A stretch of DNA of 64,000 bases from Candidatus Forterrea multitransposorum CG_2015-17_Forterrea_25_41. Its GTDB lineage: Archaea > Iainarchaeota > Iainarchaeia > Iainarchaeales > CSSED10-239. The notes under the pieces are model-generated. The model was not told the DNA's origin. It did not search any database and worked only from the letters and a program-made list of their open reading frames with translations. Location of the stretch: assembly GCA_009392915.1 (NCBI GenBank), contig CP045477.1:192001-256000 (forward strand). The letters are read 5' to 3'. Below, in pieces: positions 3,994 to 63,937 of this stretch (within the stretch, counting starts at the first letter, position 1; each line of letters begins with the position of its first letter). Position numbers and translations under genes: made by a program.

Positions 3994-4005
3994 ATTTTAA
4001 AACCT

Positions 4006-39852: not shown

Positions 39853-40317
39853 ATGACACAAAATGACAATATCACAAAACAGATATTTTTAGAAAAGTTA
39901 TTAAAACAAGATACCAAAGAGCTGGGTTTGAATGATCTTATTCAGATCCAAGAGAAGTTTAACGATCCGTTGATACTTTCTGTAATATTACATCAACTTT
40001 TAGAAGAAAGAAAAAGAACAAACGAGATATTAAAAGATCTTTATGAAAAGTATGACTCTTTACAATTTTCTATTAAGAATAGTAAAGAATCTAGTAATTT
40101 AAATCAAGATCAAGATACAATTAATATCTTACCAGAAATAGATGATAAGATAATTTCTTTTATAAGAGCAAATCAAAAAGTTGATGCAGAACAAGTACAG
40201 GAAGCATTTAATTATAAAGGATCAAATGCAGCTTCTCAAAGACTTAATAGACTAGTAAAAGAAGGATACTTACGAAAAGTTCAAGCAGGAAGAAAGGTAT
40301 ACTTTATTGTAAAATGA
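39853..40317 (+). CDS. Winged-helix transcriptional regulator (MarR/TrmB-like C-terminal wHTH)
   Basis: 154-aa ORF; C-term QVQEAFNYKGSNAASQRLNRLVKEGYLRKVQAGRKVYFIVK. Confidence 0.45.
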   Translation: MTQNDNITKQIFLEKLLKQDTKELGLNDLIQIQEKFNDPLILSVILHQLLEERKRTNEILKDLYEKYDSLQFSIKNSKESSNLNQDQDTINILPEIDDKIISFIRANQKVDAEQVQEAFNYKGSNAASQRLNRLVKEGYLRKVQAGRKVYFIVK

Positions 40318-40481
40318 TTTTTCCCCTTAAAAATCATTTCCTTTAAAAAACCCCTTTAATATAGAAAAACTGTAAAAAACCCCTTTTTTACATTTTTTCA
40401 AAATTTATACCTTTTTTCCTTCTTTTAAAAATAAGTTTTTGTCTTTTATTTTAGTCATTTAATTTCCCTCTAAAAAACTTT

Positions 40482-40690
40482 AAAAAAGATTGTAAGGAAA
40501 ACTTTTTTGTTTCTTTCCTTCTTCTTTTCTGCCCTTTAATTATAAAAATACTTATTAAAAAAAAGATTGTAAGGAAAACTTTTTTGTTTCTTTCCTTCTT
40601 CTTTTCTGCCCTTTATTAAAAAATACTTATTAAAAAAAAGATTGTAAGGAAAACTTTTTTGTTTCTTTCCTTCTTCTTTTCTGCCCTTTA
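40482..40690. repeat. Three tandem direct repeats (~75 bp unit) upstream of the giant-protein gene cluster
   Basis: AAAAAAGATTGTAAGGAAAACTTTTTTGTTTCTTTCCTTCTTCTTTTCTGCCCTTTA core repeated at 40482, 40559 and 40633 with short variable linkers (period 77 and 74 nt). Confidence 0.85.
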
Positions 40691-40857
40691 TTTTTAACTT
40701 AAAAAACTAAAAAAACTATTTTTTTTAATTTTACAACTCTTTTTAAATATTTTGTATATATAGATTTAATACTAATGAAATTGCTTTTTAACCTATTAAG
40801 CAATCAATTTAGCTACATTATAATTTTATATTAAAAAGAAGGAGTTGACTTAAAAAT

Positions 40858-41193
40858 ATGAAACTAGAAAAAATTGGTGCATTTGCTTTTCTTGGTGGTA
40901 TCTTAATTTCAATTATTTTTGGACTTATTTACAATATTAACCATCCAGTATGGCTTTCAACTGTTTTAATTATTTTAGGATTAGTTGTTGGTCTTTTAAA
41001 CATTGAAGATAAAAACATATCTCTTTTCTTAATTGCATCCATTACATTTATTGCAACTAGTAACTCAATAAATGCAATACCTGTTATAGGAGATGTATTA
41101 AGAGGAGTTTTAGTTAATTTAGTATACTTTGTAGCTCCAGCTGCATTAGTAGTTTCAATTGTTGCAATTATTAGAGTTTCAAACTCTAAATAA
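40858..41193 (+). CDS. Small membrane protein (3 TM helices), hypothetical
   Basis: 111-aa hydrophobic ORF with AAGGAG RBS; preferred over the overlapping antisense ORF 40929-41228. Confidence 0.45.
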   Translation: MKLEKIGAFAFLGGILISIIFGLIYNINHPVWLSTVLIILGLVVGLLNIEDKNISLFLIASITFIATSNSINAIPVIGDVLRGVLVNLVYFVAPAALVVSIVAIIRVSNSK

Positions 41194-41362
41194 TTCTTTT
41201 TTTTTCTTTTTTTTAAATAAAAATACATTTTTTATCTATAAATAATGAATATTTAAATATTTCTATTTATAGTATATTTAAAGTATATATAAAAAACTTT
41301 ATATAGTAATAAATATATAATATTTATATAATATTTATAAATTTATAAATAAAGAAATAAAT

Positions 41363-44300
41363 ATGGTTAAAGATAAAAATAATTTAGGCTCAAATGAAAA
41401 CAATGAAAATAAACAAAATATTTTTTCAAGATTTTATAATTATCTTGAAGATAAATATTCTTCTTTATCAAACTGGCTTACAGAAAAAGGAATACCATTA
41501 AATAATTTAAATAATTATTTAGAGGAAAAAGGACTTCCTGCTTTTGCAATAGTTGCATCTATTTTATTATTATTAATCTTTATAATTGTTTTCTTAATTA
41601 TCTTTTCTTTTTCCAGTCAATCAACATTAATTTTTTCTGTTAAAGATTATTCTGGACTTTCAATCAATGATGCTTTTTTAAAAATTACAAATAGTTCAGG
41701 TAAGGAAATCTTTTCAGGAACTGTAAATGATACTGATGTTAAAAAATTAAAATTAAAATTAGGAGAATTATATTCTTTTAAATCAACTAAAGATGGATAT
41801 CCTGATTTTTCAAAATCAATAACTATTACTGATAAAGATCAAAAAGTACAAATTACTTTTTCAGAATCAATTGAGTATGGTATATTAAGAATAAAATTAA
41901 TAGATAGAGATAATAAAGGAATAATTACTTCAGGAACTGCGATCGCAAGATATTCAATTAATAATGCTCCTGAGTCTACAGAAAACATTGTAAATATTGC
42001 AAATGAACATTTTATTACTTTAGAAGTTCCAATGAATAAAGATATTGAACTTTTAGTTAGTGCAGATGGTTATGAAGATTTTAAAGAAACAAATTTTAGA
42101 ATAACTTTAGAAAATCAAGAAAAAGTAATTGAAATGGATATTTCTTCTTTATCTTTTGAAGGTAAAAGTCAAGTTACTTTTGTTGTTTTAGATACAGAAC
42201 AAAATCCAATTGATGGTGCTTTAGTAAGCATATATAATCTTGGAGATGAATTATTAGATTCAAAAAATACAATTGATGGAAGAGCTTTATCTTTTATTGA
42301 TAGTGGTTCTACAATATCTTATAAAGTTGAAAAAGAAGGTTATAGAACATTTGTAAGTGATCCTGAAGTTTCTTTTAGAATTACAAAATCTGAAATAACT
42401 TATAATGTTACTTTAGAAGAGGGTGGAAATTTTTTAGATGTGTTTGTAAAATCTGGTTCTAATTTTTTAGCTCTTGGAGATGTTGCAATTACTGTTTATG
42501 ATTTAAATAATAATATTATTAATTCTGGAAATACAGATGATTTAGGAAATTTAAAATTAACTGGTCTTTCTGATAAAGCACCAATTGTTGTAACTGCTTG
42601 TAAAGAAGATTTCCTTTGTGAAAATTTAACAGTAGATCTTTTAGAAAAAAGTTCAGTTGAGTTTACTTTAGAAAGAATAGATGTAACAAATAGTGCTATT
42701 CTGTCTGTTTTTGTTGTTGATGAAAAAAATTTACCGATCTCAAAAGCTTTTATAAAAATCTATCAATTACTTGAAGATGATAAAGAAGTTCCATACAACA
42801 CATCTCTTCAAACTGATCTTACAGGTTCTCTTTCAATACCTCTAAGAGTTGGAGATTCTTTTATAGTTTATTCATTAGTTGGAGAAGTTCAATATTTTGA
42901 AGAAATTACAATTGATGCTTTAAGAGAAAATAAAATAATTTTTGTAATGGATAATGCTTCTAAAATAATTAAATTAGATCTTTATGATGAAAATGGTTTT
43001 AAACTTACTTCAGGTTCTTTACTTGTAAAAACAAAAGATGGAACTGTTCTTTTTGATGGTAATTTATCTGAAACTGATCAAATAAGTTTTATTTCAGAAG
43101 GCTATAAAGATTTATATGCTGAATACACAGATGTTAATGGTAATAAATCTTCAATTAATTTTAATGCTGATGAATCTGAGTCAGATGGATATATAAGACT
43201 TGATTTTAATAAAGAAGTTAATTTAACAGATTATCCTGTAATTGAGTTTTCAGGAATTGTAGATTCTAAAGGAGTTAAATCAAATTTTGTAACAATAGGT
43301 AAAGAATATTATTTAATTTTTGATGTTTTATTCCCAGAAAATACTTATAAAGGACAAGTACATATTAGAGCTGGTGATGATACTCAAGTTGATGTTGAAG
43401 AAATGAGTTATGGTATAACTGGTTTTTCTGCAATGGATATTTATGATTTTAAATATGGTACAACATATAATAGTTCTCCTCTTCCAGGTTTAATGAATAT
43501 TGATCTTTTAAATGAAGGTTCTTCTCAAGTTTTAAATAAATGGCTTGAACTTAAATGGAATAGTGATCTTCCTTTAGGTAATAAACAAATCAAAGTAAAA
43601 ATAAATGTTATAGATGATTCTTATTCAAAATTAACTTTTAAATATAGAACTTTATTTGAAGAAAATAAATTATACTATAGAGATCCAGTTGACTCTTTAT
43701 TAAACCAAAGTTATTCTTCATCTCAAAAAGGTGCTTTATATGCAGATACAAAAGAAGTAAATATTGATGTTTATAATGTTCCTTTAGATTGTGAAGGTTC
43801 TCAATGTTTGTCATATACTTTTATTGATTCAAAAGGAAATGAATTTTCAAAAAATGATTTCTATGCTGTAAGAGATGAAACTTATTTTTTAAAAGTTAGT
43901 CTTTATTCTTTAGATAATAAACAATTAGATCTTTTAGCAGAAACTTCAAAAAGTTTCCCTTTAATTTCATTTGGTTCTTTTTCAGATAATCTTTATCAAA
44001 ATGAAATAATAAATGATAATTCTTTATTTGAAATTTCAAGAGATGGTTTTTTACTTTCTGAAAATTCTTTAAAAAATATTTATCTTTCATTTATCTCAAA
44101 AGATATTGGTGCTGCATATATTGATCTTAAAGCAACAGATGTTATTTTAGGAAATGAAATTTTAAACAATAGATTAAGTTTTAATGTTTATGATAAAAAA
44201 GAAATGAATGTTTTAGTTTCTCCAAGTAATTATGTTGATTATGGATCAAATTTTACTGTTGATGTTTTAGATTCAGTTTCTCTTGAACCTATTACAGATG

Positions 44301-47300
44301 CTTTTATTTCTTTTTATGATGTTAGAGATACTTTTATTTCTTCTTTAAAACCAAGTAATTCAAATGGAAGGAATGGAAAATATACTATTACAAATAATTT
44401 TAATACTTCAACTGTTAAAATGGTAGTTGAAAGATATGGTTATCTTCCTTATGAAACTGAAATTTATATTATTGATAATACTTTATTAAATGCAATTCCT
44501 TCAGAAATAATTTTTAATTTAGGTCTTGACCAAACAGCATCAACTTCAAATTTTAGTTTAGAAAACTTAGGTAATTATCAAGCAACAAATGTAAGGTTTG
44601 GAGAACCTATTTGGATTGAAGGTAGTGCTGGTATTTATCTTGAAGGAAGAGGTAATCCAATAATTAATAAAAACTCAACTCAAAATTATCAATTGTTACT
44701 TACAACAGAAAATGATGTTGAACTTAAAACAGCATATGCACATCTTCCAGTATATGCATCTGTAGGTCCTAGAGAAGTTACAAAAATATTAAATGTTAGA
44801 ATAAATAAAGGTTTAATGTTAAATGAATGTGTTGAAATTACTCCTTCTGAAGTTTCTTCTTTTGTTGGACTAAATGTTTCTTCAAATTATGCAGATCCTT
44901 TTAATACTCCTTTTGCAGATTATGATTATACTTCAAATACTTCAAATAATCCTATGCTTGCACCTTCTCAAAGTTATTCTAATTATGAAGAATATTTAAA
45001 TTCAAGTGGATATAACATTACTGATTCAACAGATAATGGTTATACTTACACAGATTCTAAAAATTATACTTATCATGCAACTTCTCCTGCTCTTAATTCT
45101 CAAATTACTGAAAACACAACTTATTTTACAATTAAAAATAATTGTTCTCAAGCTATAACTTTTAATCCTCAAGCAGTTTTAACTTCTTCATCATCAAATA
45201 ATAATTTAGAAGTTTCTCTTGCAAACATAACTGTTCTTCCAGGAGAAGAAAAAGTTTATGATGTTATTTTAAAAAATTCATCTGAACTTAAAAGAAAAAC
45301 AACATATACCTATAATGTTTTATGGCATAATAATTATTATTCAATAGCTCCTTCAGTTTTAAATGTTGATCTTTTAGATTTAAGTAGAGCTTTATGGGTT
45401 ATGCCACAACAAATAAATATTCCAATCTCTCAAGTACATCCTCAACAAGCTGCTGAAAATTATACTAGATTTTTTATTAAAAATATAGGTGCTGTTCCAA
45501 TAACTGATATACAAATAAGTCAGTATCCAAAAATGGTGTCTTCTAATATTAAAATAACTGAATATCCAAGACAAGTATCTGTTTTAGAACCAGGAAAAAC
45601 AATTCCTGTTGATTTAAAATTTTCAGTAAATATTAATAAATCTACATTAGATAATGCCTTTATACAAGTAACTGGTAAAGCTGTTGGTATTAGTGAACCA
45701 ATTACTTCAACAACACAATTAGTGTTTTCAATTTCTTCTCCAAATTGCTTAAAAGTAAGTAATAAAAATATTAATTTTGATTTAGAAGTTGGGGAAACAA
45801 GAGCAAGAAATATTACAATTACAAATCAATGTTCTGAACCTGTTACAATAGTTGGAATTGATAAAAAACAACAAGGATATTATCAAGCATATGGGGATAA
45901 TTCTTTTAGAATAACTCCTGCTTCTGGTAATCCAATAATTCCTGTTAACATGTCAAATTCTTATAGAATAGAGTTTACTGCAAATTCTTTAGGTGGTTCT
46001 CCAAAAACACCAATGATACTTCAAGGTAGATTAATGAATTCAGGTAATCCTGTAACTTCAGAAGAGGTTTTAGTTTCAATAACTATAGATGATATAATGG
46101 TTGGAGAAGAAGCTGAAAGAAATATTTCTATTTTATCTTCTCTTCCTTCTTGTGAAGATCCACAAAATATTAATTCATATAATAGACCATTAATTTCAAT
46201 TAAAGATTGTTCTGAAACTTCAGGATATTGTGATGGAGAATCTTCAGCTGAATTAATTTTAAAAAAAGTAAATGAACTTCAAAATGAAATTAAACAATTT
46301 TCTGCACAAACACAATCAAAAGTAATTGATACTGGTTGTACTCTTCAAGATGCATATAGTGGTTTTTGTAAAATATCTGAACTTGGTGGAGGAATTGATC
46401 CTGTTGAGTTTTCTTTCTTTATGCAAAATGATAATGTTACACCTGATTTAATTAAATCTATTTTAACAAAATCAAATTATTCTTTTAAAAATTATTTTGT
46501 TGAAACAAATATTTTTAATAAAGAAATTAAAACTATAAATCAATATTCTTCTTATGGGGTATATGCTGGTGGAAATAAAATATTTGTATCTCCTCACCTA
46601 TCAGGTTGTGGAAAATATACAGTAGAGATTGATGGTTATGTTGCTGCAAGTCCAGATTATATTTATCCTGAAAGAGCATATTATTATATTAATGTTGTAG
46701 AAAAAGATACTAACACTATTCATTGTGAGAAAAATATTGTAAATTATTTAAATTATCTTCCATGGGATCTTTCTTTTAATAAAAACCAAAGAGCAGGAAC
46801 TTGGCTTACTTTATTTACTGGTGATGAAAATTTATCAAAAGCTTTAATTAAAAGTGTGGGTAAGTTTAAGTCAGATGAAATTGATTTAAGATATGTTTAT
46901 AATAAAGATGTTTTATCTACAAGAAATAGTACTTTAAATGTTTCAACTGGAGAGATTTCTGAAAATAAAGAAGCTCTTGCAAAAATTTCTTTTAATGATA
47001 CTTCTTTAAGAAAAAGCTCTTCTCCAGAACAAATAGATATTACTTTAAATTCTCTTTATAATTCTCCTGAAGGTAAAACTTCTGAGTATGCTGTTAAAGA
47101 TTTTTCAAAAGTAATTTCTTCAATGATTTCAGATAATGATTATTCTGCAAAAGTTTGTATTTCTGAAGATAAAACATATATGCTTGTTTTAGATGTTATT
47201 TCAGCAGGAGATTTAACTTTTGTTGATAAAGAAGTAAGTCTTCCTTTAAAGGATGGAGCTTCATGTTCTTTATTAAAAGTTAAATCATCAGTTCCTGAAA

Positions 47301-49378: not shown

Positions 49379-49487
49379 TTCTTTTCTTTTTTTATTTTTT
49401 TAGTAAAAAGAAATATATAAAAATATAAACATCTTATTTATATTAGTTAATATAATATATTAAAGATATAATTGGTGTTATCTAATC

Positions 49488-51167
49488 ATGTTAAGAAATA
49501 AAAAAGGATTTAATTTATTTACTGCTTTAATCTCATTGATGCTTTTATCAATAACTCTAGTTTTTATTTTTAATATGGTTCAAACTGAAGAAAATTATTT
49601 AGAATTAATAAATAATCAATCTCAAGCTTCTGACCTCTTAACAATTGCAGATATTTCAAGAGCTGATGCTTTTAATAATTTTGTTGTTTCTTTTAGAGAA
49701 CAATGGATGTCTTTTAGAAGTGATCCTCGTTCTGAAATCATACTTAAAAGAAAAGATATTATGCTTGATTGGGATGGTTTTGTAGATTATTTTGCAGATT
49801 ATATTTTCTTTGATAATAGTTTTGAAAATTATTTTGCAGATAATATGGTTAGATCTTTAAATTATACAAATCCACCAACAGGTTATGCAATAAATGTTCC
49901 TAATTATTCTCGTGATGATTTATCTAGTATTATTAAAACAGCTTTTCTTGAAGCTGGAGATGATAAAATAAAAGTTGTAAGTTGTGAAAGAGAAGATGAG
50001 GTTTGTTTAGGTACACTTTATTTTACAATTGATACTAGAAAACTTTCTGCACAAGAATATGAAAAACTTCCAATGATAACTGTTAAAAGAAATGTTGATG
50101 ATGAAGTTATTCAAAGACCAGTTTTTGCAAAAAGAGCATACAGGATATATATTCCCTGGAGAGGTTTTCAAGCTTTAAGGACTGTTAGAAATTTTGCACT
50201 TGATGCTGATCTTGAAAAAGGAGAAACAACAGCTCAAATTATTGAATATTCAAAAGATTCAAGAGGTTTTTTAAACCCCTATATTCATTATACTCTCAAT
50301 AGTGCAAAACTTGGTGTTTGTGATATTGATAGTTGTGCTCTAAGAAAAGATTTATTTAAAACTGTTGAGTTTAATGGGTTTACTGGAGATGCATGTTCTA
50401 ATCCGCCTGGAGTTAGTAATGTTTCTGACAATGGAGGAATTACTGGATCTTTTACTGGAGAAGTTTCTCTTTCTAATAATCATAGTTACAATATTCAAGA
50501 TATAGATGGAACTGTAAAACCTATATATAATGATTTAGTTAAAACAACTATAGAAAACAATTTAGAATATAGAACTGATATAATACATGCAGGAAATAAT
50601 TTGCCATCAATCTCTTCTTCTTCAATTTTAGATGATGAATGTCAAATGTCTTTAACAACTGGAAATTTTTCAATATGTGATATACGTGTAAGACTTCCTT
50701 CTCCAAAAGTTACAAAAGAAGTTATTTCTGTAGGAACTGTTTCAGAATCTTTAAGTAGTTTATCTCAAGTTTCATTCAATCCTTCTGGTAGTTTTAATAA
50801 AGCTTCAAACTTAAGTCTCTCTATTGATGATGATTTAAATATTAATGTTTTTGATCAAGAAAGTACTATTCCTAATGAAACTGATAATCAATATCTATCA
50901 TGTACAACAATTGACTATATTGATTTATTATTTAAATTTGAAGAACAAGATGAAAAGTATATTTTTTCTCAAGATTCTAAAAATATTTATATTTTAATTC
51001 AAGATAGATTTTCAGATTATACTTTCTTTAATTCATTTGGAAGCGTTCCTAACTTTAGTGGAGGATATTTTCAAAAAAGAGAACTTCCTTCATTTACAGG
51101 AGGACAAGGTTGGACTTGTAAAAGTTATGAAGCAAATGAAGATGATGCAGCATGTGTTGCAGGTTAA
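49488..51167 (+). CDS. Pilin-like secreted protein (class III signal peptide), 559 aa
   Basis: N-term MLRNKKG|FNLFTALISLMLLSITLVFIFNMV; remainder hydrophilic with scattered Cys pairs. Confidence 0.6.
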   Translation: MLRNKKGFNLFTALISLMLLSITLVFIFNMVQTEENYLELINNQSQASDLLTIADISRADAFNNFVVSFREQWMSFRSDPRSEIILKRKDIMLDWDGFVDYFADYIFFDNSFENYFADNMVRSLNYTNPPTGYAINVPNYSRDDLSSIIKTAFLEAGDDKIKVVSCEREDEVCLGTLYFTIDTRKLSAQEYEKLPMITVKRNVDDEVIQRPVFAKRAYRIYIPWRGFQALRTVRNFALDADLEKGETTAQIIEYSKDSRGFLNPYIHYTLNSAKLGVCDIDSCALRKDLFKTVEFNGFTGDACSNPPGVSNVSDNGGITGSFTGEVSLSNNHSYNIQDIDGTVKPIYNDLVKTTIENNLEYRTDIIHAGNNLPSISSSSILDDECQMSLTTGNFSICDIRVRLPSPKVTKEVISVGTVSESLSSLSQVSFNPSGSFNKASNLSLSIDDDLNINVFDQESTIPNETDNQYLSCTTIDYIDLLFKFEEQDEKYIFSQDSKNIYILIQDRFSDYTFFNSFGSVPNFSGGYFQKRELPSFTGGQGWTCKSYEANEDDAACVAG

Positions 51168-51297
51168 ATTCACTTTTTAATGTTAATAAAAAGGTATTTA
51201 AATGTATAAGCACTATAATTATATAACAAATAACATAGTTTTTAAAAGATTATGTTATAAAAATATAATATATTATAATATATACGAGAGATGATTT

Positions 51298-54200: not shown

Positions 54201-57200
54201 TCAAGAAGGATTATTTGGTCATGTAATTCCAGCAACTGATCTTGGAGATGTTTTAAAGATTGTTGTAAAGAAAGATGATTATAAAACAGTTAAAACAGAA
54301 ATTGTAATTGATGATAAATTAATCACAACAATTCCTGAAAAAATTGATTTAACAATTGATTCTTCAAAATCAATAAGAGAAGTTTATAATTTTAGTTTAT
54401 ATAATGAATCTTATGTTCCTTTAACAATTGTTTCTGCATCAGCATTTACTGATAATGAATTTGTTGATCTTGATTTAGGTATTGAAGAAAATATCATAAA
54501 TGGTGTTTCTCAAAATGATATTTCTCTAACAGCAACATTAACAGATAAAGGTATTAATCTTTATAATCAACAAACAATTAATACAGAAGTTGCAATTAAA
54601 ATTAAAAGTGAAGAAATGAATAAAACTTGGGTTATTACAGTTCCATTAACTGTTAGAATAGTTTTAGGAAATTCTCTTGATTCTCTTGAATGTTTAAAAG
54701 TTCTACCTCTTGAAGGAACAATTAGAGCTAAATCTCAAGAAACAAAAACTTTAGATTTTACTTTAGAAAACACTTGTACTTCAAAGAATGTTTCTGTTGA
54801 TTTAGGAACTATTAATGCAATGGTTGATTGGGGTAATGAATCTGAAACTGGACTTTTATCAATTGTTGTTTCTGGTAAAGAATATATTTTAGAAAACTTA
54901 ACTGAAACTGAAATATTATCAACTCTTTTAAAGAAATCAAAAACAACTTTACAATTAAAGTTTAAAGCGCATAAAATAGTTTCAGATGTTAAAATACCAA
55001 TTATTTATTTTACTTCAAAGAAAGGAAATATTAATGGTGTTGATGAAGTTAAAACAAGACTTCCCTTAAAAACAATTATTAATGATTATTCAGAATGTAT
55101 TGAGATCCCAAGAGAGACAATTCCTGCTCTTGCATGTAATTGGTATTCTGGACTTAATAACTATGGTAATTATTATGGTGGAGTAAACCAAGGAGGAGCT
55201 TTCAATAATCCTTATTATGGTGGAAATAATTTTAATGCAACATATAATCCTAATAACCAATTTAATTCTAGAAATTACTATCAACAAGGTTCTGGTTATG
55301 TTACACAACAACAAGGTGTTTTTAATCCAAATTATAATTTAGTGGGACAAACAAATTATACAGGAAATCAAAATTCTGTGTTTAACCCTTATAATTTCCC
55401 TTCCTCACAATATCAAAATACTTTTGGAAATTATGATAGTTATAATTTTACATCAGGTTATCCTCAAGGTAACTATGGAAACATGGGTTTTACAAATAAC
55501 ATGAATTGTCCAACAAGACCATTTTATATTAAAAATAATTGTTCTGAAGCTGTTGATATTAAACTTGATTCAATATATGGTTTAACAATTGCAACAGATA
55601 AAGAATTTACAATAGAACCTGGAGATACAGAAGAGATTAGTGTTTTAGGTGGAGAGTCTATGGGTACTTTTAAAATACCTGTAAATGCAAAAGCATCTCT
55701 TGCATCTAATGAAAATTATTCAACAATTGGAGATGTTTTATTTTCTTTAACATTACCAATTAGTTTTATGTCTTCAAATTGTATACAAGTAACTCCTCAA
55801 AAATTAGATTTTTCAAATATTATTGATCCTAACTATCAACTTGTAAAAGTAATTAATACTTGCTTTGCACAAGGATACAGAATAGTTGAAGTTAATTATC
55901 TTGATTTAATTTCACTTGACTTTGATGGTGTATCTTTCTTAAATGTAGGAGATATGCAAGGAAGAATTCAACCAATTAAAGTTGATACTTTAACAAATAC
56001 AACTACAAATGAACCAATGGAAGTTTGGGAAATTGCATTAAGAAGAAATCCTGAAATTGAAAATACTAAGTCTGTAAAAGAGTATATGAATAAATATTCT
56101 GATTATTCTTTAGCTGCTGGTGTTATTTCTTCATTTAGAAAAATATTAATTGATGTTGAAGACGCAGTTAACTTAAAGTTTTCTTTACAAGTTGGACTTC
56201 AACCACCAACAGGACAAGCTTCACTTATCTATAATAATATAGGTATGGAACTTAAGGATAATTTCCAATGGTTAATTTTAGATAATCCTGATAATATAGG
56301 TCTTTTAAAAGATTTATTTGGTGATGAAGCTATTAGTGATGAAGAAATTTCATTTATTGATACTTCTGTAAAATTAACATATACCCTTGATCCTAATAAC
56401 AATGCAGTTATTATTAATGTTCCTGAAGGAGAACTTGCTGCAGATAAATTCACACAAATTGATCAAGACCCTACAAGTAAAAGATGTTTCTATGGATATG
56501 TTAAAGATTTCCCTATAACTGGTATTGTAGATACTTCATATATACAAAACTCTGGTAAATATTATTTAAATAATAAATATGATCCATTAGATGTAAGTCT
56601 TGAATTTATTACTAGAAATAAAAATATCTTTAAATTATGTTTTGAAAGACCAGTTGAATCATTTGATAATATTTTAGCTACAAATGATAATTACAATATC
56701 TTAGATTTATTTAAAACAAGTAAAGATTCTCTTACAAACCAAAACTTTGAGATTTGGAGAATTTTAGATACTACAAATAAAGGTAAATACCAAGGTAGTA
56801 CTTTAATTGGTGTAAAAGCTGATGTTTCAACAAAAGAAGTTGGCTCTAAAGAAGAGGGTGACTCTGGAAAAACTGATCCTTCTCAAACAACAGATGATTC
56901 TTTAGTTTGTCTTGCTCCTGACCTTTCAACAAATCTTGGACATACAGGTTCTAATGTTTATTCTCAATATGGATTTGATAAAATATTACTTGATTACTTA
57001 CCAGAAGATATTACAGATTCTTCTTGTGAAGATTATTTCTGTGATCAAGAACAATTCTATAATTTCTTAACAAAGAAAGCAGATAAATTAAAAGAAGTTA
57101 CTTCAAATAGTAATTATATAAATATTAATGGTATTTATTTTGAAAAAGAAAATAATACTATTAAAGAATCAAAAGTAAAAGTAGATCTTTGTGCAAACGG

Positions 57201-58269
57201 CGTTTGTGATGGCTTTGATGTTTCTGGTAAAGAAACTTTAAATGATTATATAAATCAAGCAAATAAAGTTTTAAATGCTGTTCCAGCAGACTTAAAGAAA
57301 ATAACAATCATTAAGACTAAAGGTTTAACTACTAATGGAAATAAAATTGTAACAATTGGTGATTATCAATATACAACTGTTGATTATTTCTTAGAAAATT
57401 ATGATTCTTTTGAGAACAAAGCAATAGTTTATGCAAACATGGATGTATACTTTGGATCTTCTCCTCAAGTATTCAGTTCTAACCTTAAGAAATTTTCTGG
57501 TAGTTCTGAAGATTTAAATAAAAAAATCTTAGCAAACTTTAATAATACTTTAACAAGTAACTATACAATTGAGTATGCTGAGGCTGTAAATATTTCAAAA
57601 CCAGGAACTTATACAACAGTTATTTCTCTTGAAAATATAGATTCTCAAAATAAAAGAAAAATAAATTTAACAATAGGTTCTAAAGTTTCTGAGATTAGTG
57701 AAGAATATAGTAAAAATATTTTATTTACATATCCAATTAATCCTGAATATACAATGAAAGAAAAGAGTGATAAATATAATGCTCCTTTCATTAAGAATAA
57801 AAATTATACTTTAATTGATTATCCTTCAGAAATTATACAAGATGGATATATCTTTAAGTTTGAGGATATGGCAAATTATGATTTTATTGATTCAAGACCA
57901 TTTTATTTCAATAAACCATATAGTTTTAAGATTATTGAAACTAATGAAAATAATACAGAGCTTGATTTAATAGAAAATAAAGCAAGTTTATTCTTACTTA
58001 AAGATAGAACAAATAAAAAGATTAGTTTGTATTCAAAACCACAAATTACAAGTCAAGATACAAAGAATAACACTGTCTTTTTAAAAACAACTACTAATAA
58101 TAATTATATGATATATAATTTACAAATGAATAATGTTTTACCAAAATTAACATATTCATCAATGAAAGATGTATTTAATGAAATTAAAAACGAGAATGTA
58201 TGTTTCAATATAACTGAAGGAACAACTCCTGAACTTATGTTGTGGCATAATCCTGAAAAATTTAAATGA
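51298..58269 (+). CDS. Giant (2323 aa) membrane-anchored surface protein, paralogous N-terminus to neighbours, prealbumin-like repeats, internal N/Q/Y/G-rich low-complexity segment
   Basis: Uninterrupted 7-kb ORF; N-term MGLRSFYFKQEEKYFNFLDRMEKKGINL...EKNGIPTFLVFNIFILLLILFLVYLF; many VxVxDxxxxPIxNAxI...TNxxGxxxF repeats; aa ~1283-1400 N/Y/G/Q-rich. Confidence 0.75.
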   Translation: MGLRSFYFKQEEKYFNFLDRMEKKGINLYKIIDPLEKNGIPTFLVFNIFILLLILFLVYLFVGQTPLTDENYTLTFVNSQDQPISNQAIEILLNNNRKILTTNEFGISEITDVEIKSYDLEISSEKYTLENPLTLDFKENTSHKIFLKSKTSVLSKTIYFKTNNELYNSPLTISNISCSNNSLYTKNNLQTNDGSLTLDDIPTDCGYLEVAIESSTINAVGSLEVSEDSPSGDIDLSFEGVETGSAKIIILDKDLKVPIQNISISILNNQSQIVTSSITNANGIASFEEINVGTYNLLIYDEEERYKPVTENESLELVVYDSVLEEKEVLLEKAFIGKLNYKIIDTQSKEAIENVAVTIYKGNDILKTINSNKEGDVSFGVEENISYKVLFNHPNYIIRTENNQRISESIKQIALTPITNENLRSLVITVVDDFAKPVDFATIRLWDDTEDIILRTITADIYGKAVFTNLDLGKEYRLDATKDQFTSNPTNPFRISEQEITEETIKMSIGEGTFNINLVSEYGEFYQGNVYVYDATNDTLMQDKTTTTNQDGFTIIKIRADKQIYFVIDNLDSKFITPKYSTNANEINTLNFTIPGTVGQTSGIEFLGFYNAEGEKINSVAAGMQVTAKYLLNVTKEYSKAVAHIRTGEVPSPLCSSNTYNVLEDLIFIKDVRYAKSDKIGSLTFTPCNGEGIDFSNKTLRNAKWFNLTLNNPMQGSYLIEADVVVLDTAFANQALNYRAEFYQGSSIIRSPVDSSYSSSTSKQNLYAQAKQVQLFLGTQNQCTSLMCYAFIMTNTQNNLSRNIIDSYKAKLNNDYRLSFSLNVLDGKIAPNSMLVISSGSSVDLDGYSITSGTGSLLVGEDYDGIDLGSLVSNDLITGELAFKVIDDVSDVLDFSIVSNGEVVFSKKIYLEIDPAKEMFVEFVPRKIVPFVSNDLLVVVTDDSNNFISNAIVELSINDRSLTVGSTNQEGLFGHVIPATDLGDVLKIVVKKDDYKTVKTEIVIDDKLITTIPEKIDLTIDSSKSIREVYNFSLYNESYVPLTIVSASAFTDNEFVDLDLGIEENIINGVSQNDISLTATLTDKGINLYNQQTINTEVAIKIKSEEMNKTWVITVPLTVRIVLGNSLDSLECLKVLPLEGTIRAKSQETKTLDFTLENTCTSKNVSVDLGTINAMVDWGNESETGLLSIVVSGKEYILENLTETEILSTLLKKSKTTLQLKFKAHKIVSDVKIPIIYFTSKKGNINGVDEVKTRLPLKTIINDYSECIEIPRETIPALACNWYSGLNNYGNYYGGVNQGGAFNNPYYGGNNFNATYNPNNQFNSRNYYQQGSGYVTQQQGVFNPNYNLVGQTNYTGNQNSVFNPYNFPSSQYQNTFGNYDSYNFTSGYPQGNYGNMGFTNNMNCPTRPFYIKNNCSEAVDIKLDSIYGLTIATDKEFTIEPGDTEEISVLGGESMGTFKIPVNAKASLASNENYSTIGDVLFSLTLPISFMSSNCIQVTPQKLDFSNIIDPNYQLVKVINTCFAQGYRIVEVNYLDLISLDFDGVSFLNVGDMQGRIQPIKVDTLTNTTTNEPMEVWEIALRRNPEIENTKSVKEYMNKYSDYSLAAGVISSFRKILIDVEDAVNLKFSLQVGLQPPTGQASLIYNNIGMELKDNFQWLILDNPDNIGLLKDLFGDEAISDEEISFIDTSVKLTYTLDPNNNAVIINVPEGELAADKFTQIDQDPTSKRCFYGYVKDFPITGIVDTSYIQNSGKYYLNNKYDPLDVSLEFITRNKNIFKLCFERPVESFDNILATNDNYNILDLFKTSKDSLTNQNFEIWRILDTTNKGKYQGSTLIGVKADVSTKEVGSKEEGDSGKTDPSQTTDDSLVCLAPDLSTNLGHTGSNVYSQYGFDKILLDYLPEDITDSSCEDYFCDQEQFYNFLTKKADKLKEVTSNSNYININGIYFEKENNTIKESKVKVDLCANGVCDGFDVSGKETLNDYINQANKVLNAVPADLKKITIIKTKGLTTNGNKIVTIGDYQYTTVDYFLENYDSFENKAIVYANMDVYFGSSPQVFSSNLKKFSGSSEDLNKKILANFNNTLTSNYTIEYAEAVNISKPGTYTTVISLENIDSQNKRKINLTIGSKVSEISEEYSKNILFTYPINPEYTMKEKSDKYNAPFIKNKNYTLIDYPSEIIQDGYIFKFEDMANYDFIDSRPFYFNKPYSFKIIETNENNTELDLIENKASLFLLKDRTNKKISLYSKPQITSQDTKNNTVFLKTTTNNNYMIYNLQMNNVLPKLTYSSMKDVFNEIKNENVCFNITEGTTPELMLWHNPEKFK

Positions 58270-58296
58270 TTTTTATAAACTAAGAGGTTATGAAAT

Positions 58297-61200
58297 ATGG
58301 GACTTAAAAAGTTATACTATAATTTAGAAGATAAATATTACAGTTTTGTTGAAAGAACAGGACTTTATAAGGTTACTGATAAAATAGATAAGGTTATGCC
58401 TTCTTTTATTTTATTTATTCTTTTAATTGTAATATTAATATCTGGACTTGTCTTTTTACTACTTCCTTCTTCTCAAGTAAAAGACGGTGTTGATATTCAG
58501 TTTGAAGTGATTGATGCTGAGTCTGGTGCTCTTCTAGAGGATGTAACTTTAATGCTTACAACAAGTAAAGATATTTCTTCTATAACAACTTCTTCTGAAG
58601 GACTTACAGATTATATTAAAATTCCTAAAAATACCTCTTATCAAATAGATATTGTTGAAGATTCTTATGAAAATTTCAATGATATTTTTTCAACAAAAGA
58701 GTCTTCTGAAACTATAACTATAGCTTTAGAACCTTCTGGTGTTGAACCATTAACTGTTTCATATTCTTTTGATGTTGTTGATTCTAAAACTACTTTAATT
58801 GTAAATTCTACTGGTGCAATTTCTTTTAAATGTATGAACGGATCTTTAGCACCTAATCCAGTTAGAGTTTTAAATGGTAATGTTTCAGTTGAGGCATCTC
58901 CTGAATGTAATCTTGCAATTGATTCAATTTCATTTAATGGTTATTTATCAAAAGATAATATTCCAATAAATGCAATGACTGGAACAATTTCTTTAGAACC
59001 AACAGAAATTAATTTCCAAGATGATACTTATAAAGTTGTAATAAATGTTAAAAATTCATCTAATGAAGCTTTATCAAATATTAAGGTAACTTTTACAAAT
59101 GATTATGGTATAATTGATTCTAAAACAACTTCAAGTAATGGAAATGTAACTTTTGAAGATTTAGATTCTGGAGAATATATTGTAAATTTTTCTGATCAAA
59201 GAGCAACTCCTATATACAGTACTCTTTCAAGAACATATTATATTTCATCTGATATTACAAAATCAGAAACTTTATCTTCTGATGTTTCTGGATATATTTT
59301 TGTAAGAATAATTGGTGAAAATTCAGGTGTTTTAGAAGGAGCTGAAGTAAATTTAAAAACTTCAGAAAATAATACTATTGAAACTAAATTATCTGATGTT
59401 GATGGTGAAGTAATTTTTACAGTTTCTGAAATTAAAGATTATAATGTAGTTGTTGATGCTGAAGGTTATTTAATAACTAGAAAACTTGTTGAAGCAAAAG
59501 AAGTAATGCCAACAAACCCTATTGTTATTCCTTTACCTTTAATAACACCTGCAACTTTAGCTTCTTTAAAGGTACAAGTTACAACTTGGGAAGGAAAGCC
59601 TTTTAAGTTTGCAAAAGTTGTTTTGTATGATGCAGAAACTGGTTTTTTAACAGACTATAAACCAGTTTTAACAAACTATGATGGAAATGCTACAATAAAT
59701 ATTACTTCTGGAAAATATATTGCAAAAGCTATTAAAGGAAGTGTTACTGGTGAGTCATCAGAGTTTGAGTTTAATGTTAAATATCCTGAACTTTCTGGTA
59801 CTGTAACTATTCCAATGGGAATTAGTGAAGGTGTATTGAATGTTTCAGTTGTTGATAATGATGGTAATCCTGTTCCATATGCCATAATAGATTTATATGA
59901 TAGATATAGTTACTATAATTTCACACCAGCAGTTCCTTTAAAAAAGACAACTACAGATTCACAAGGAAATATTGAAATGGTTGTGGATGCTGATATTGAA
60001 TATTATGTTGTTGCAACTGATTTAGATGATGTTTATGGAAAAACACAATCTAGATTTGTTTATGTTGGTGCAGATTCTCAAGAGTCTCTAGAAGTTACTC
60101 TTTATCCAAGAAATAGTTCTACAACAAAACCAAGAATGGTATTTAATGGAATATATAAAGATGACTTAAAAGTTGAAGATAACTTAAAGGCTGGAGAAGA
60201 TTACAAAATCAGATATAATCTTTTAGTTCCTCAAAATAGAACTGGAGATGATGTTTTTGAAGAAATTGGTTTAATGTTAAGAACTGGTTCAACTTCAATG
60301 ATTGAAAATGATTCTTTATTTATTAAATATCTAGATGTTCCATATTTAGATAGTATACAAAAATATACACAATTTAATCTTAATGCACCTCATGAAAATG
60401 AAGGTTATTATGATGAAGATAGTTTAACTGAAGGAAACTTTAAATGGGCAAAAGCAACATTAAAAGAAGGTCCTATTAATTATAATGGTTCTTTTGGTTT
60501 CTATAATGCTTATGAAATTGAAGCAATAATTTCTGTTAAAGACACAGCTGTCTTTGGAGAAGAACTTAAAATATTTAGTTTAGGTTATGGTCTTAATGAA
60601 GATGATGAATATGAAACATATAATTCATATTTAGGACCTAATGAAGAAATTGAATATTATGATGTTTATGATCAAATAACATTTGGTGTTGGAAATGAAC
60701 TTTTCTGTTCTGATGAGTTTTGTTTCTCTTCAACAATTGTTGATGTTTCAGAAGACTTAAGATATGATGTTACAAATAATTTTGCAGCTATGCCAAATAA
60801 AGATTATAAGTATAGTTTTACATTAATTAATAATTCTCTTGAAACTAAATATTTATCTTCTAGATTTATTTTAGAAAATATTGATGAAGGTTTAGATTTT
60901 AAAAATATAAAAATCTATAAACCAGATGGAGAAGTATACACCCAAACAAATACTAATGAAAATGAATTTGATATACCAATAACTTCTTTAGTTTCAAAAC
61001 AAAAAGTAACTGGAGAAATTATTTTTATGCCTAAACTTAAAGGTACAAGAGAGTTATCTATTAAATTTATTTCTGATCAAAAAATAAAATTCATTAATCA
61101 ATTATTCATAGATGTTCTTTCAGATAAAACATTTGAAGTAGAGATTGAACCTTCAATAATTCCTTCTGCAAAGAGTTTCTCACTTGTGATTAATGCTGTT

Positions 61201-63900
61201 GATTCTAAAACAAAAATACCTGTTGAAAATAGAACAATAACAATTAAAGATAAATTTAAAGATACTATTAAAGGACCAATTTCAGTATCTGATTCAGTTG
61301 ATGAAATTGAAATAGGTAATATTCCTGCTCAAGGACCTGGAGATACAATCTATGTTTATATAACAGCTCCTGAGTATGAAACTGTTGTTGAAGAATTAAA
61401 AGCAACTGATAAATTATATAATATTATTCCAAGAAATTTAGCATATTCATTAAATATATTTGATGAAAAACAAAAAACTGAAAACTTTACAATTAATAAT
61501 TTATCTCCAATTGATTTAACTATTGATGAAATGGTTGTAAAAGGAAATGGTCTTGAAGTTGTTGATCTTCACAGAATAAATAATACTTTACTTAATAGTG
61601 TTGGTGTTATTATAAAAGGATTTGATTCAGTTTCAGATCTGCCAGATAACACAGACGCTTCAAAAGAGATTCCATTAACTATTAGTTTAAATCCAAGAGC
61701 TGAAACAATTAGAGAAGTTGTAGATTTATCTTCAACACTTCATATTGTTCTTTCAAATGGAGAAAATCAATGGAAGAGTGAGATTCCAATTAAAATAAAT
61801 ATTGGCTTTGATGGTATGATTGATAATTCTAATTGTTTAACTTTATCTCAAGATCAATGGAATGCTGTTGCTTTAAATAAAGCTGTTGATACAACATTTA
61901 TGGTTTCAAATAAATGTTCTGTAAATGGAACAAATATGCCTCTTTCAAATGGTCTTGAAGCAAGAGTATTATTTGAATCTAATCCTCAAGGTAAATTTAT
62001 TATAAGTCTTGATAATAGATCAATTGAACTTACTCATGGTAACTATAGAAGATTACTTGATACTTTTGATAGAGATAGATCACTTCCAGTAATTTTAAAA
62101 TATGAACCTGCTGGAAGAATGAAAGGAACTGTTAAAGGTACAATTGAGTTTAGATCTGTAAATAACACTGGAAGTGGAGAACAAGAATTAGTTTCATCAA
62201 TTGCATTTGAAATTGATGTTACAAATTTAAAAGATTGTGTTGTGTTTTCAAAGAGTTCTTTAAATGTTGGACAAGTTGATGACGAATTCACAATTGAAAA
62301 TGTTGCTTGTCCTGCAGACATGACTTACAGACTTTCATGTGACAATTGTCAAGGTTTAGTTGTTGAACCAAGAAATAATATTGATGTTCCTGCAAGTGGA
62401 AGTAGTGAAAATATTGTTGTAAGAAACATGGGAGCTACACCTGGTGCTTATGTTTTAAATGTATTTTCAAGTATGAAAGAATTTAGAGGTTCTGAAGAAC
62501 TTATAAAAAGAATAAAAGTATATGTAAGACCAACAGATTATTGTGTTGATCTTGAAAGATATGAGTTTGATCTTTATAGATCTGAATATTCTGAAAGTAC
62601 TGGTCTTGAACTTAATGCAACTTCATATGATACAACAAATTTAATTAATCTTTGTTATGGTCAAGAAGTTGAAGGTACTTTTAGTGTTAAAGAAGATGCT
62701 AAATGGAAGATGGCTTTAACTTCATTTTTAAGAGAAGGTTTGTATACTGGTGGTATTTCTGCTATCTTGCAAGGAAAGTTATTTGCATCAGCTGAAGATA
62801 AGGCAAATAAATTACTTGAAAGTGATGCTATAAAGAATAGCACTGATGAAAATGTAAAATCAGCTGCTGCTGCATTAGCTGCTGCTGTTGCTACTGGTAA
62901 TAAGAAAGATATTAAAGAGAAGACAACTGCTCTTGAGAATGCTGTGAATGATTCTGTTAATCCAACTTCTTCAGAAGCTACACCTGGGGAAACTTCTACT
63001 GGAAATCAAACTTCTTTGATTGATAAATCTAACCAATTAGTTACTGATGTTGAAAAATATTTAGAAGATTACAAGGTTTCTGGAAAAAATATTTATCAAG
63101 AAGTTGGTGACACAAATATAAAAAAATTAATCAATGATTTAAAAGATGCAATAAAAACTAATAAAATTGAAAAAATAGAACCTGCTTATAATGAGCTAAA
63201 ATATGTTTTTGAAGAATTTAAAAATACAAATTCTCCTGTTACTACTCCATCTGCTGGAAGTACTCCACCCGCTCAAACTACTTCCCCCGCTCAAACTTCT
63301 GATACTGATAGTTTAACTGTAAATGATGATGTTGATAATACTTGGAAAAATAGTGTTAATTTAGATATATATAGAGAGTTTGTTTTAGATAATCCTAATA
63401 AACTTGATTTTGAATCTAAATCCTATAAAGCAGAAGATTATTCTAATTGGGATACTTTCAGAGAAAAATACGATAAAAGTGTTATTACACTTAATAAAAA
63501 AATAGAAGATGAATTATTAGTGTCTGCAACAAGTCAAAATGATTTTTCTGAAAAAATAAGAACTGCAAAAGATGAATGGAAAAAAAATGTTAGAATTTTA
63601 ATTGAAGATTTAAAAGCAAAGGAGGAGACATTAACTCCTAATTTAGATGTTCAACAACAAAGACTTCAAATTGCAAGTCAAGCACAAACAGGTGCTAGTT
63701 GTAGTAAAGACGAATTAATCCCTGGAACACAAGAAAATTTATTTAATATTATTGAACCTAATGATAATGGATTTGTATATGTTTGTACAGGAAATGGTCA
63801 TTATAGAGCTTGTGATTTAAATACAAATAAATGGACTCCAATAGCAACTAATTACCCAATTTATGATCATGCAGTAGATACATGTATTGAAATAAATTAA
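58297..63900 (+). CDS. Giant (1867 aa) membrane-anchored surface protein, paralogous N-terminus, prealbumin-like repeats, Ala/Ser/Thr-rich C-terminal region and Cys-containing terminal domain
   Basis: Uninterrupted 5.6-kb ORF starting 27 nt after the previous gene; N-term MGLKKLYYNLEDKYYSFVERTGLYKV...MPSFILFILLIVILISGLVFLLL; repeats such as VVDNDGNPVPYAIIDLYD...TTDSQGNIEMVV. Confidence 0.75.
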   Translation: MGLKKLYYNLEDKYYSFVERTGLYKVTDKIDKVMPSFILFILLIVILISGLVFLLLPSSQVKDGVDIQFEVIDAESGALLEDVTLMLTTSKDISSITTSSEGLTDYIKIPKNTSYQIDIVEDSYENFNDIFSTKESSETITIALEPSGVEPLTVSYSFDVVDSKTTLIVNSTGAISFKCMNGSLAPNPVRVLNGNVSVEASPECNLAIDSISFNGYLSKDNIPINAMTGTISLEPTEINFQDDTYKVVINVKNSSNEALSNIKVTFTNDYGIIDSKTTSSNGNVTFEDLDSGEYIVNFSDQRATPIYSTLSRTYYISSDITKSETLSSDVSGYIFVRIIGENSGVLEGAEVNLKTSENNTIETKLSDVDGEVIFTVSEIKDYNVVVDAEGYLITRKLVEAKEVMPTNPIVIPLPLITPATLASLKVQVTTWEGKPFKFAKVVLYDAETGFLTDYKPVLTNYDGNATINITSGKYIAKAIKGSVTGESSEFEFNVKYPELSGTVTIPMGISEGVLNVSVVDNDGNPVPYAIIDLYDRYSYYNFTPAVPLKKTTTDSQGNIEMVVDADIEYYVVATDLDDVYGKTQSRFVYVGADSQESLEVTLYPRNSSTTKPRMVFNGIYKDDLKVEDNLKAGEDYKIRYNLLVPQNRTGDDVFEEIGLMLRTGSTSMIENDSLFIKYLDVPYLDSIQKYTQFNLNAPHENEGYYDEDSLTEGNFKWAKATLKEGPINYNGSFGFYNAYEIEAIISVKDTAVFGEELKIFSLGYGLNEDDEYETYNSYLGPNEEIEYYDVYDQITFGVGNELFCSDEFCFSSTIVDVSEDLRYDVTNNFAAMPNKDYKYSFTLINNSLETKYLSSRFILENIDEGLDFKNIKIYKPDGEVYTQTNTNENEFDIPITSLVSKQKVTGEIIFMPKLKGTRELSIKFISDQKIKFINQLFIDVLSDKTFEVEIEPSIIPSAKSFSLVINAVDSKTKIPVENRTITIKDKFKDTIKGPISVSDSVDEIEIGNIPAQGPGDTIYVYITAPEYETVVEELKATDKLYNIIPRNLAYSLNIFDEKQKTENFTINNLSPIDLTIDEMVVKGNGLEVVDLHRINNTLLNSVGVIIKGFDSVSDLPDNTDASKEIPLTISLNPRAETIREVVDLSSTLHIVLSNGENQWKSEIPIKINIGFDGMIDNSNCLTLSQDQWNAVALNKAVDTTFMVSNKCSVNGTNMPLSNGLEARVLFESNPQGKFIISLDNRSIELTHGNYRRLLDTFDRDRSLPVILKYEPAGRMKGTVKGTIEFRSVNNTGSGEQELVSSIAFEIDVTNLKDCVVFSKSSLNVGQVDDEFTIENVACPADMTYRLSCDNCQGLVVEPRNNIDVPASGSSENIVVRNMGATPGAYVLNVFSSMKEFRGSEELIKRIKVYVRPTDYCVDLERYEFDLYRSEYSESTGLELNATSYDTTNLINLCYGQEVEGTFSVKEDAKWKMALTSFLREGLYTGGISAILQGKLFASAEDKANKLLESDAIKNSTDENVKSAAAALAAAVATGNKKDIKEKTTALENAVNDSVNPTSSEATPGETSTGNQTSLIDKSNQLVTDVEKYLEDYKVSGKNIYQEVGDTNIKKLINDLKDAIKTNKIEKIEPAYNELKYVFEEFKNTNSPVTTPSAGSTPPAQTTSPAQTSDTDSLTVNDDVDNTWKNSVNLDIYREFVLDNPNKLDFESKSYKAEDYSNWDTFREKYDKSVITLNKKIEDELLVSATSQNDFSEKIRTAKDEWKKNVRILIEDLKAKEETLTPNLDVQQQRLQIASQAQTGASCSKDELIPGTQENLFNIIEPNDNGFVYVCTGNGHYRACDLNTNKWTPIATNYPIYDHAVDTCIEIN

Positions 63901-63937
63901 TTAATTTTTATATTAAAAATAAAAGGTGTAAAAAAAT

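Follow-up and report, generated by a model that had tools for sequence, protein, structure and literature searches.

A conserved cluster of giant membrane-anchored proteins in Iainarchaeota: a candidate fibrillar-adhesin-like surface apparatus

A fibrillar adhesin, in the sense in which Monzon et al. 2021 reportedly use the term, consists of an anchor, a stalk of repeated Ig-like domains, and an adhesive domain at the tip. Here we describe a cluster of genes for giant proteins of comparable anatomy in the archaeon Candidatus Forterrea multitransposorum, within a stretch of 64,000 nucleotides (contig CP045477.1, positions 192,001 to 256,000) that we refer to throughout as the window. Two other described systems invite comparison. 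The bacterium Apilactobacillus kunkeei carries consecutive genes for giant extracellular proteins, Giant1-5, which take up 6% of its 1.5 Mb (PMC12863079). In the Thermococcales there is the VARTIG system, whose authors found no counterpart outside that order (PMC8416519); metagenome-assembled genomes of DPANN archaea may or may not have been in their set.

The cluster consists of six genes on the same strand, in the order G1-P559-G2-G3-P964-G4, where G1 to G4 are giant proteins, P559 is a pilin-like protein, and P964 is a protein with a Sec signal peptide that is predicted to be secreted. An earlier, sequence-only reading of the window had described a locus of four genes; the locus in fact holds six, of which P964 and G4 lie past position 63900. 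We interpret the cluster, with a probability of roughly 0.65, as a multi-component, fibrillar-adhesin-like surface-fibre apparatus that is conserved across the Iainarchaeota. As the sequence-only reading had supposed, we found no description of such a system in the searchable literature; many papers in subscription journals fall outside that search, and we therefore call the cluster undescribed only provisionally.

With fibrillar adhesins the giants share a surface anchor, the same Pfam stalk families (CarboxypepD_reg, SpaA, SdrD_B, Big_1), and a distinct distal head, and the weak fold matches of that head include receptor-binding domains of adhesins. They differ in their anchor, which is an N-terminal transmembrane (TM) helix with a cytoplasmic motif rather than an LPXTG or secretion signal, in a head without any known adhesive domain, and in being archaeal and grouped, as four paralogs with two partners, in a single phylum-wide cluster. 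Like Giant1-5, the giants occupy several per cent of a small genome, are elongated with a terminal head, and are diversified by intragenic recombination. However, Giant1-5 are bacterial, bear N-terminal beta-solenoid heads like those of serine-rich-repeat adhesins, and are confined to few genera (PMC12863079), whereas the cluster in Iainarchaeota is phylum-wide and includes a pilin-like gene; no homology between the two is evident (no such Pfam domain). VARTIG is likewise archaeal, with a large multi-Ig-domain protein, a recombining hypervariable C-terminus, and extra Ig-domain genes downstream (PMC8416519). But VARTIG has a single large protein, and the genes downstream of it vary and are shuffled in the manner of polymorphic toxins (PMC8416519), whereas in Iainarchaeota the order and content of the cluster are fixed, there are four paralogs, and the variability resides in coiled-coil cassettes or a knob.

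Four giant paralogs and their distal heads

Each of the three giants in the window has one strong TM segment near its N-terminus (G1 63-81, G2 44-62, G3 38-56), as judged from the Kyte-Doolittle hydropathy scan by which all TM segments reported here are predicted. Many paired Cys residues lie beyond it. The prediction agrees with the N-terminal anchor, inserted N-in, that the sequence-only reading had proposed. In all four giants the TM segment is preceded by a conserved motif of about 45 residues, predicted to be cytoplasmic, of the form FY..LEDKY..F.D.LE.KGI.LY..ID.LEK.GIP.F. The prealbumin- or carboxypeptidase-regulatory-like stalks of the same reading are likewise borne out, by Pfam scores above cut-off in G2 (CarboxypepD_reg 73.9, SdrD_B 38.9, SpaA 30.0 bits) and in G3 (CarboxypepD_reg 62.8, Big_1 39.6 bits, together with SpaA); stalk families also score above the Pfam cut-offs in G4. 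G1 yields only a sub-threshold match to bMG3, and its stalk is recognised solely through profile homology to G2. A sequence search against solved structures with profiles of G1, G2 and P559 returned only transthyretin- or scaffoldin-type Ig-like matches, or nothing.

The topology that the giants had been said to share is thus confirmed, but their likeness extends well beyond topology. G2 and G3 are 23% identical over some 1,300 residues (BLASTP, E 4e-33), G3 and G4 as well as G2 and G4 align likewise, and the families of G1 and G2 match across G1 residues 22-1163 (hhalign probability 100, E 2e-39). By these alignments G1 to G4 are paralogs that share the cytoplasmic motif, the TM helix, and a stalk of about 1,100-1,300 residues. 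Within the stalk lies a central module, for which we built a profile from G2 residues 595-1141 and the counterparts in G1 and G3. Among 1.84 billion proteins, represented by clusters at 50% identity, this profile matches 463 representatives at E<=1e-3 and 263 at E<=1e-30. In almost all of them the module sits at about residues 600-1150 of a protein of 1.8-3.3 thousand residues. The named members belong to Diapherotrites, apart from one labelled Micrarchaeota, and are annotated as hypothetical or as 'carboxypeptidase regulatory-like domain-containing'. Across families conservation is highest in the anchor and the central module and lowest in the heads.

Beyond about residue 1,300 the paralogs diverge. 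G1 (28 Cys) runs from the motif, TM helix and beta-sandwich stalk through a head of its own and a Cys-rich hydrophobic knot (residues ~2160-2260) to a coiled-coil-like region and a conserved C-terminal stretch of 70 residues. In G2 (22 Cys) the N-terminal motif, TM helix and stalk are followed by an N/Q/Y/G-rich linker and then the head, while in G3 (16 Cys), with an anchor and stalk of the same kind, the distal part is Ala-rich and coiled-coil-like, and the C-terminus forms a knob rich in Cys. The N/Q/Y/G-rich linkers between stalk and head are prion-like in composition and lie at window positions 55150-55506 in G2 (residues ~1285-1403) and 44870-45110 in G1 (residues ~1170-1250). They stand in the same place in both proteins, and across the G2 family it is their position, not their sequence, that is conserved.

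The heads of G2 and G4, together with P964, carry the signature W.W...CD...[FY]CD..Q followed by a helix. It is present in 103 of 125 full-length representatives of the family, and the G2 family shows no variation at C1910, C1915, D1916 and Q1919. P964 amounts to a G4 head encoded as a separate protein (hhalign E 2e-39 over 780 columns). Among the heads of G1, G2 and G3, hhalign finds weak colinear matches (E 1e-3 to 0.1, probability <20%). Because these profile matches are weak, a common ancestry of the heads rests mainly on the shared motif and is unproven for G1 and G3. The fold matches of the head are weak, are mostly to receptor-binding domains of adhesins and include no enzyme fold, and searches of Pfam, NCBIfam, PHROGs and PADLOC returned no catalytic, phage or defence family. 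These results agree with the absence of recognisable catalytic motifs that had been remarked on in the giants.

In G4 (L007:12914-20311, and also L006 and L047, where L numbers designate the loci that we fetched) there is a conserved Gly/Ala-rich hydrophobic double segment of about 55 residues, at residues ~1500-1580, with hydropathy up to 2.4. Such a segment might form a membrane hairpin or else insert into a different membrane. A Gly-rich segment homologous to it stands directly after the signal peptide of P964. Gly/Ala-rich hydrophobic segments are found also in G1 (residues ~2160-2265) and G3 (~1480-1500), and both are followed by coiled-coil regions.

Synteny, strain variation and the pilin-like partner

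G2 is identical to NCBI protein NCP79419.1 ('hypothetical protein GW835_02520 [archaeon]') and occurs on contigs of up to 839,632 nt. It has some 15 near-full-length homologs at 30-63% identity, several of which are named Candidatus 'ainarchaeum'; since full-length homologs exist at such identities, we conclude that the open reading frames (ORFs) of the cluster are genuine genes rather than chance reading frames. The genome is present in groundwater samples (JGI 3300008002, 3300007988 and 3300033166). When GTDB species genomes were scanned with a profile of P559, 37 loci resulted, counted at the level of species. One of them is Ca. Iainarchaeum andersonii SCGC AAA011-E11; the titles read Iainarchaeum, Diapherotrites or unnamed archaeon. 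The genome had been guessed to be DPANN-like, and the named homologs, Diapherotrites/Iainarchaeum (phylum Iainarchaeota), agree with that guess.

When the fetched loci are annotated with hidden Markov models, the order G1-P559-G2-G3 appears in nearly all of the 37 species-level loci and in essentially every locus that is long enough, at P559 identities down to ~22-30%, and the same gene order recurs in metagenome contigs, down to ~22-35% identity. The order G3-P964-G4 is repeated in five loci (L002, L003, L006, L007, L047), and positional orthologs of G1, of 2404-3113 residues, occur in about 20. The check on giant-pilin-giant-giant synteny that the sequence-only reading had suggested therefore comes out in its favour, as the order is kept across Iainarchaeota loci. 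An assembly chimera, or spurious ORFs, can be ruled out: an identical G3 is found on contigs in 81 index blocks (24 examined), and full-length homologs stand in the same order in 37 species. The presence of four paralogs in a fixed order argues for non-redundant subunits.

Three individual loci deserve mention. In L005:1192-2868 (JGI 3300007988) the cluster is otherwise identical, and P559 is split into ORFs of 154 and 364 residues, which reflects either a disrupted allele or an assembly error. Another contig with an archaeal G1-P559-G2 (L027, JAFCBY010000012.1) is filed as 'Candidatus Falkowbacteria bacterium', and is probably mis-binned. L046:1-17662 shows a different arrangement, that is, a giant (2489 aa), a 168-aa multi-TM protein, and two more giants (2952 and 2553 aa) with heads of the P964/G4 type, from which it follows that the giant family forms other types of cluster too.

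Comparison of close strains, which are 96-100% identical apart from the cassettes, reveals that the distal parts are replaced as cassettes. Against L009, which is ~96% identical in DNA, G1 is 88-100% identical in each block of 100 residues except over residues ~2200-2600, where identity is 25-34%; the last 70 residues are again 100% identical. Against L007, G3 is 92-100% identical over residues 301-1500, while its last 270-350 residues are 19-30% identical (59% in the block 1501-1600). L048 comes, like L007, from the 246,630-nt contig family, and its G1 cassette is of the window type (96%), so that the G1 and G3 cassettes assort independently. A metagenome scan for further alleles of the G1 cassette gave three loci only.

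The signal of P559 reads KKG/F[NT]LFTAL (the slash marks the putative cleavage site) and is of class III type. In 19 homologs K6 is nearly invariant, and G7, F8, L10, F11, T12 and A13 are invariant. Hydropathy peaks at residues 10-28, and an AlphaFold2 model (predicted TM-score 0.77) has a helix at residues 10-77 followed by an alpha/beta domain. The class III signal peptide of the earlier reading is upheld by the invariant G7/F8 pair and by the modelled helix. The globular domain bears Cys, has no Pfam match, and is unmatched in fold. Archaeal proteins with class III signal peptides include some that are not pilus subunits, for example the sugar-binding 'bindosome' proteins of Sulfolobus. P559 resembles such proteins: its N-terminus is short and basic, the Gly at -1 is invariant and is followed by a hydrophobic helix, and its globular domain is large. 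It differs from them in its unmatched globular fold, in having no machinery genes nearby (in the window and the fetched flanks), and in the motif GF[NT]LFTAL, which is nearer to the bacterial GFTLIE than to the [KR]G[AV] of the other pilin-like genes in the window.

Those other genes form a second, separate pilin-like adhesin cluster at 155-6414 on the minus strand. It comprises three co-directional genes (1102, 176 and 802 aa) with class-III-type signals QKG/VTS, EKG/AAN and QRG/ASE, two of them with Laminin_G_3 and one with Gly_rich_2, and their cleavage motif differs from the GF[NT]LF of P559.

Proposed surface fibres and competing explanations

If the cluster is a surface-fibre apparatus, as we suppose, then the four giants would be inserted N-in by their signal-anchor helix, with the conserved motif of ~45 residues before it, EDKYY..F.D.LE.KGI..Y..ID.LEK.GIP.F, as a cytoplasmic 'handle'. 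A dozen or so prealbumin- or Ig-like beta-sandwich domains, arranged around the family-specific central module, would form the stalk, and stalk and low-complexity linker together would hold the paralog-specific head tens of nanometres off the membrane. A prepilin peptidase would cleave P559 between G7 and F8, the long N-terminal helix would hold it in place, and P559 would join the secreted P964 as a fixed partner of the giants in a hetero-oligomeric assembly. The heads and the distal coiled-coil cassettes would extend outward from the cell and contact, and presumably bind, a variable partner, be it another cell, a surface, a polymer or a virus. Such contact would explain the swapping of cassettes by recombination between strains. 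Taken together, an anchor, known stalk families, a flexible linker, a distinct head and outward variability make up the anatomy of fibrillar adhesins, and the occurrence of the same four paralogs and two partners throughout the phylum argues for one multi-subunit apparatus and against a set of interchangeable adhesins.

Several considerations weigh against this interpretation. Adhesins usually turn over fast, so that strict conservation across a phylum is unusual for them and would fit a structural role in the envelope as well. No ligand-binding domain of a known family was detected, and the model of the G2 head is only partly confident (mean predicted local distance difference test score 65). 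Neither a prepilin peptidase nor a pilus ATPase or platform gene turned up in the fetched flanks or among the window's ~40 ORFs, and Iainarchaeota are not known to have a host.

A structural role is the basis of an explanation that we regard as unlikely, though worth serious attention, namely that the cluster is the main envelope scaffold, or a substitute for an S-layer, in which the giants act as pillars or a canopy and not as adhesins. This would suit a cluster that is near-universal, fixed in order and apparently confined to a single locus across the phylum, whose membrane-proximal parts are the most conserved, and which from G1 through G4 spans ~32.9 kb (six genes, 10,850 codons), or ~4-5% of contigs of 0.66-0.84 Mb. 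It would also suit the gene of the exosortase/archaeosortase family, a class of cell-surface sorting enzymes, that precedes G1 in seven deep-clade genomes; yet the C-termini of the giants that we inspected are hydrophilic and offer an archaeosortase no sorting signal such as PGF-CTERM. Nor is there a match to an S-layer family in Pfam or NCBIfam, and an S-layer typically consists of one or two proteins, each far shorter than 2,000 residues. Long flexible N/Q/Y-rich linkers and strain-variable tips, moreover, suit projecting fibres better than a lattice.

The cassettes themselves raise the question of a polymorphic recognition or conflict system, akin to VARTIG or to polymorphic toxins, in which a conserved body displays or delivers a swappable C-terminal effector or recognition cassette. 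Replacement in G1 and G3 is sharp between near-identical strains, with conserved flanks and independent assortment, and VARTIG likewise is a large Ig-domain protein with a recombining C-terminus (PMC8416519). We nevertheless consider such a system quite improbable, given that what varies is a small Cys-rich knob and sequence of low complexity or coiled-coil type, that Pfam and NCBIfam reveal no toxin domains and PADLOC returns nothing, that the next genes downstream are conserved (P559 86-100%, P964 97%) rather than variable and immunity-like, and that the gene order is fixed where VARTIG and polymorphic toxin loci are shuffled. There is a slim chance that the cluster is instead a device related to type IV pili, with P559 as a large pilin (minor or at the tip) or a pseudopilin of its filament; the giants would decorate that filament or need it for their export or display. 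The class-III-type signal of P559 points that way, and the lack of machinery genes nearby points the other. A last alternative, to which we assign similarly little weight, holds the cluster to be a membrane-engaging machine for cell-cell contact rather than a passive adhesin. The hydrophobic segment and coiled coil in G1 and G3 are reminiscent of a fusion peptide with heptad repeats, and the near-universal C-D-x-x-Q, with which a helix begins, might act as a metal site or a reactive, thioester-like one that captures its target covalently or tightly. Were this alternative true, the cluster would provide the machinery, long sought, with which cells of a DPANN lineage attach to the membrane of a partner and perturb or bridge it.

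Other candidates were rejected. A phage tail fibre or prophage is contradicted by the lack of any PHROGs match, or of any BFVD match in Foldseek at E<=0.001, and by the chromosomal flanks (NurA, PEP synthase, RuBisCO, XPD); a defence system by PADLOC, which found nothing. Heads acting as enzymes, proteases or glycosidases are without family or fold support. For an alpha-2-macroglobulin-like protein there are only sub-threshold matches to bMG3 and MG4, with no TED or A2M family, and the spacing of C-D-x-x-Q differs from that of CxEQ.

Iainarchaeota are uncultured, and may be free-living or host-dependent. A fixed-order cluster of ~33 kb is very likely central to how they meet their environment, and the present one is the best candidate for how they touch their surroundings. 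Its strain-variable cassettes could mark partner specificity or viral pressure, and the central module, the CDxxQ head and P559 supply targets for metaproteomics, antibodies, cryo-electron tomography and structural work. If it is a fibre apparatus, the cluster adds an archaeal, N-terminally anchored type to the giant fibrillar surface proteins, with head folds that match nothing solved.

Gene map, transcription units and the region upstream of G1

The features of the cluster are collected in Table 1. The positions, sizes and strand of the ORFs agree exactly with those given earlier. The GC content of the window is ~25%, and the genes neighbouring the cluster are chromosomal and archaeal: NurA, an M48 peptidase, LemA, PEP synthase, RuBisCO, XPD, and an intein-bearing protein.

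Table 1. Positions of the cluster genes, their parts, and upstream features, counted along the whole 64-kb window unless a locus is named; all cluster ORFs lie on the plus strand.
Feature	Position	Strand	Basis or remark
154-aa ORF	39853..40317	+	probable C-terminal winged-helix domain; peripheral neighbour, not core
75-bp tandem repeat	40471..40714	.	Tandem Repeats Finder (TRF)
111-aa ORF, three TM segments, 0 Cys	40858..41193	+	hydropathy
G1 (Giant 1, 2671 aa)	41363..49378	+	ORF map, profile homology to G2
G1 copy of central module	43217-44851	+	
G1 hypervariable cassette, aa ~2200-2600	47960..49162	+	strain comparison
P559 (559 aa), pilin-like	49488..51167	+	class-III-type signal
G2 (Giant 2, 2323 aa)	51298..58269	+	Pfam, homologs
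G2 central scaffold module, aa 595-1141	53080..54720	+	
G2 head core, aa 1869-2154	56902..57759	+	includes invariant C1910...C1915-D-x-x-Q1919 at 57040-57054
G3 (Giant 3, 1867 aa)	58297..63900	+	BLASTP to G2, Pfam
G3 copy of central module	60106-61863	+	
G3 hypervariable distal tail, aa ~1520-1867	62854..63900	+	strain comparison
P964 (964 aa), 5' end, cut at window edge	63938..64000	+	continuation read on L004
Archaeosortase-family gene upstream of G1	L025:1011-1496, L028:1280-1771, L029:390-956, L032:609-1151, L045:2401-2988		also L027, L034

The gaps between genes are 109 nt (G1-P559), 130 nt (P559-G2) and 27 nt (G2-G3). The locus L004 is 100% identical to window positions 48297-64000 and extends beyond the end of the window; there, P964 starts 37 nt after G3, and G4 (2466 aa) follows 15 nt after P964. 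Downstream of G4 are a 122-aa protein and then a secreted, Gly-rich protein of ~806 residues. The locus had been described as an operon, and for its later part this description is plausible: the short gaps G2-G3 and G3-P964 contain GAGG or AGGTG, resembling a Shine-Dalgarno motif, just 5' of the start codons. For the earlier part it is less apt, as an oligo-T tract follows G1, and there may be more than one transcription unit; an AT-rich, TATA-like sequence precedes both P559 and G2. Judging from these motifs, G2-G3-P964-G4 are likely co-transcribed, and G1 and P559 may have promoters of their own.

Upstream of G1, the sequence-only reading had listed a winged helix-turn-helix (HTH) regulator, a triple tandem repeat of ~75 bp, and a small protein with three TM segments. 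The repeat and the three TM segments are as described. The regulator is less certain, in that residues 97-152 of the 154-aa protein do match HTH families (MarR_2, HTH_27, Penicillinase_R, ArsR), but every match is below threshold. None of the three is kept outside close relatives. The 154-aa gene is found upstream of G1 only in L009 (100%) and L022 (80%), and the 111-aa gene, which directly precedes G1, is specific to a lineage comprising also L009, L010, L021 (inverted) and L022. In a middle clade the place upstream of G1 is taken by LemA, and in seven deep-clade loci, including Ia. andersonii, by a gene of 160-190 aa of the exosortase/archaeosortase family, in which the Cys, Arg and His motifs are preserved (TIGR04178 cut-off 23, scores 30.8-37.5 bits). 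Since they are replaced in other clades, the HTH gene, the repeat and the 3-TM gene are not core parts of the cluster. The window contains no archaeosortase-family gene. The 111-aa protein matches no family in Pfam or NCBIfam, and we rejected the possibility that it is a degenerate archaeosortase (hhalign probability 0.1%, no Cys).

The repeat has a unit of 75 bp in 2.8-3.2 copies (TRF score 404, 95% matches), compared with 2 copies in L009. Its pyrimidine-rich core, CTTTCCTTCTTCTTTTCTGCC, is also present 5' of the 3-TM gene in L010, L021 and L022. The repeat has no match in Rfam. Read on the minus strand, each unit has the form of a hairpin with T8 after it; the hairpin falls short of significance (z -1.3 to -1.6).

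Elsewhere in the window, at 20402-22924 on the minus strand, an 840-aa protein carries an intein (Intein_splicing and LAGLIDADG_3), and the host protein has a weak match to a Zot-like P-loop.

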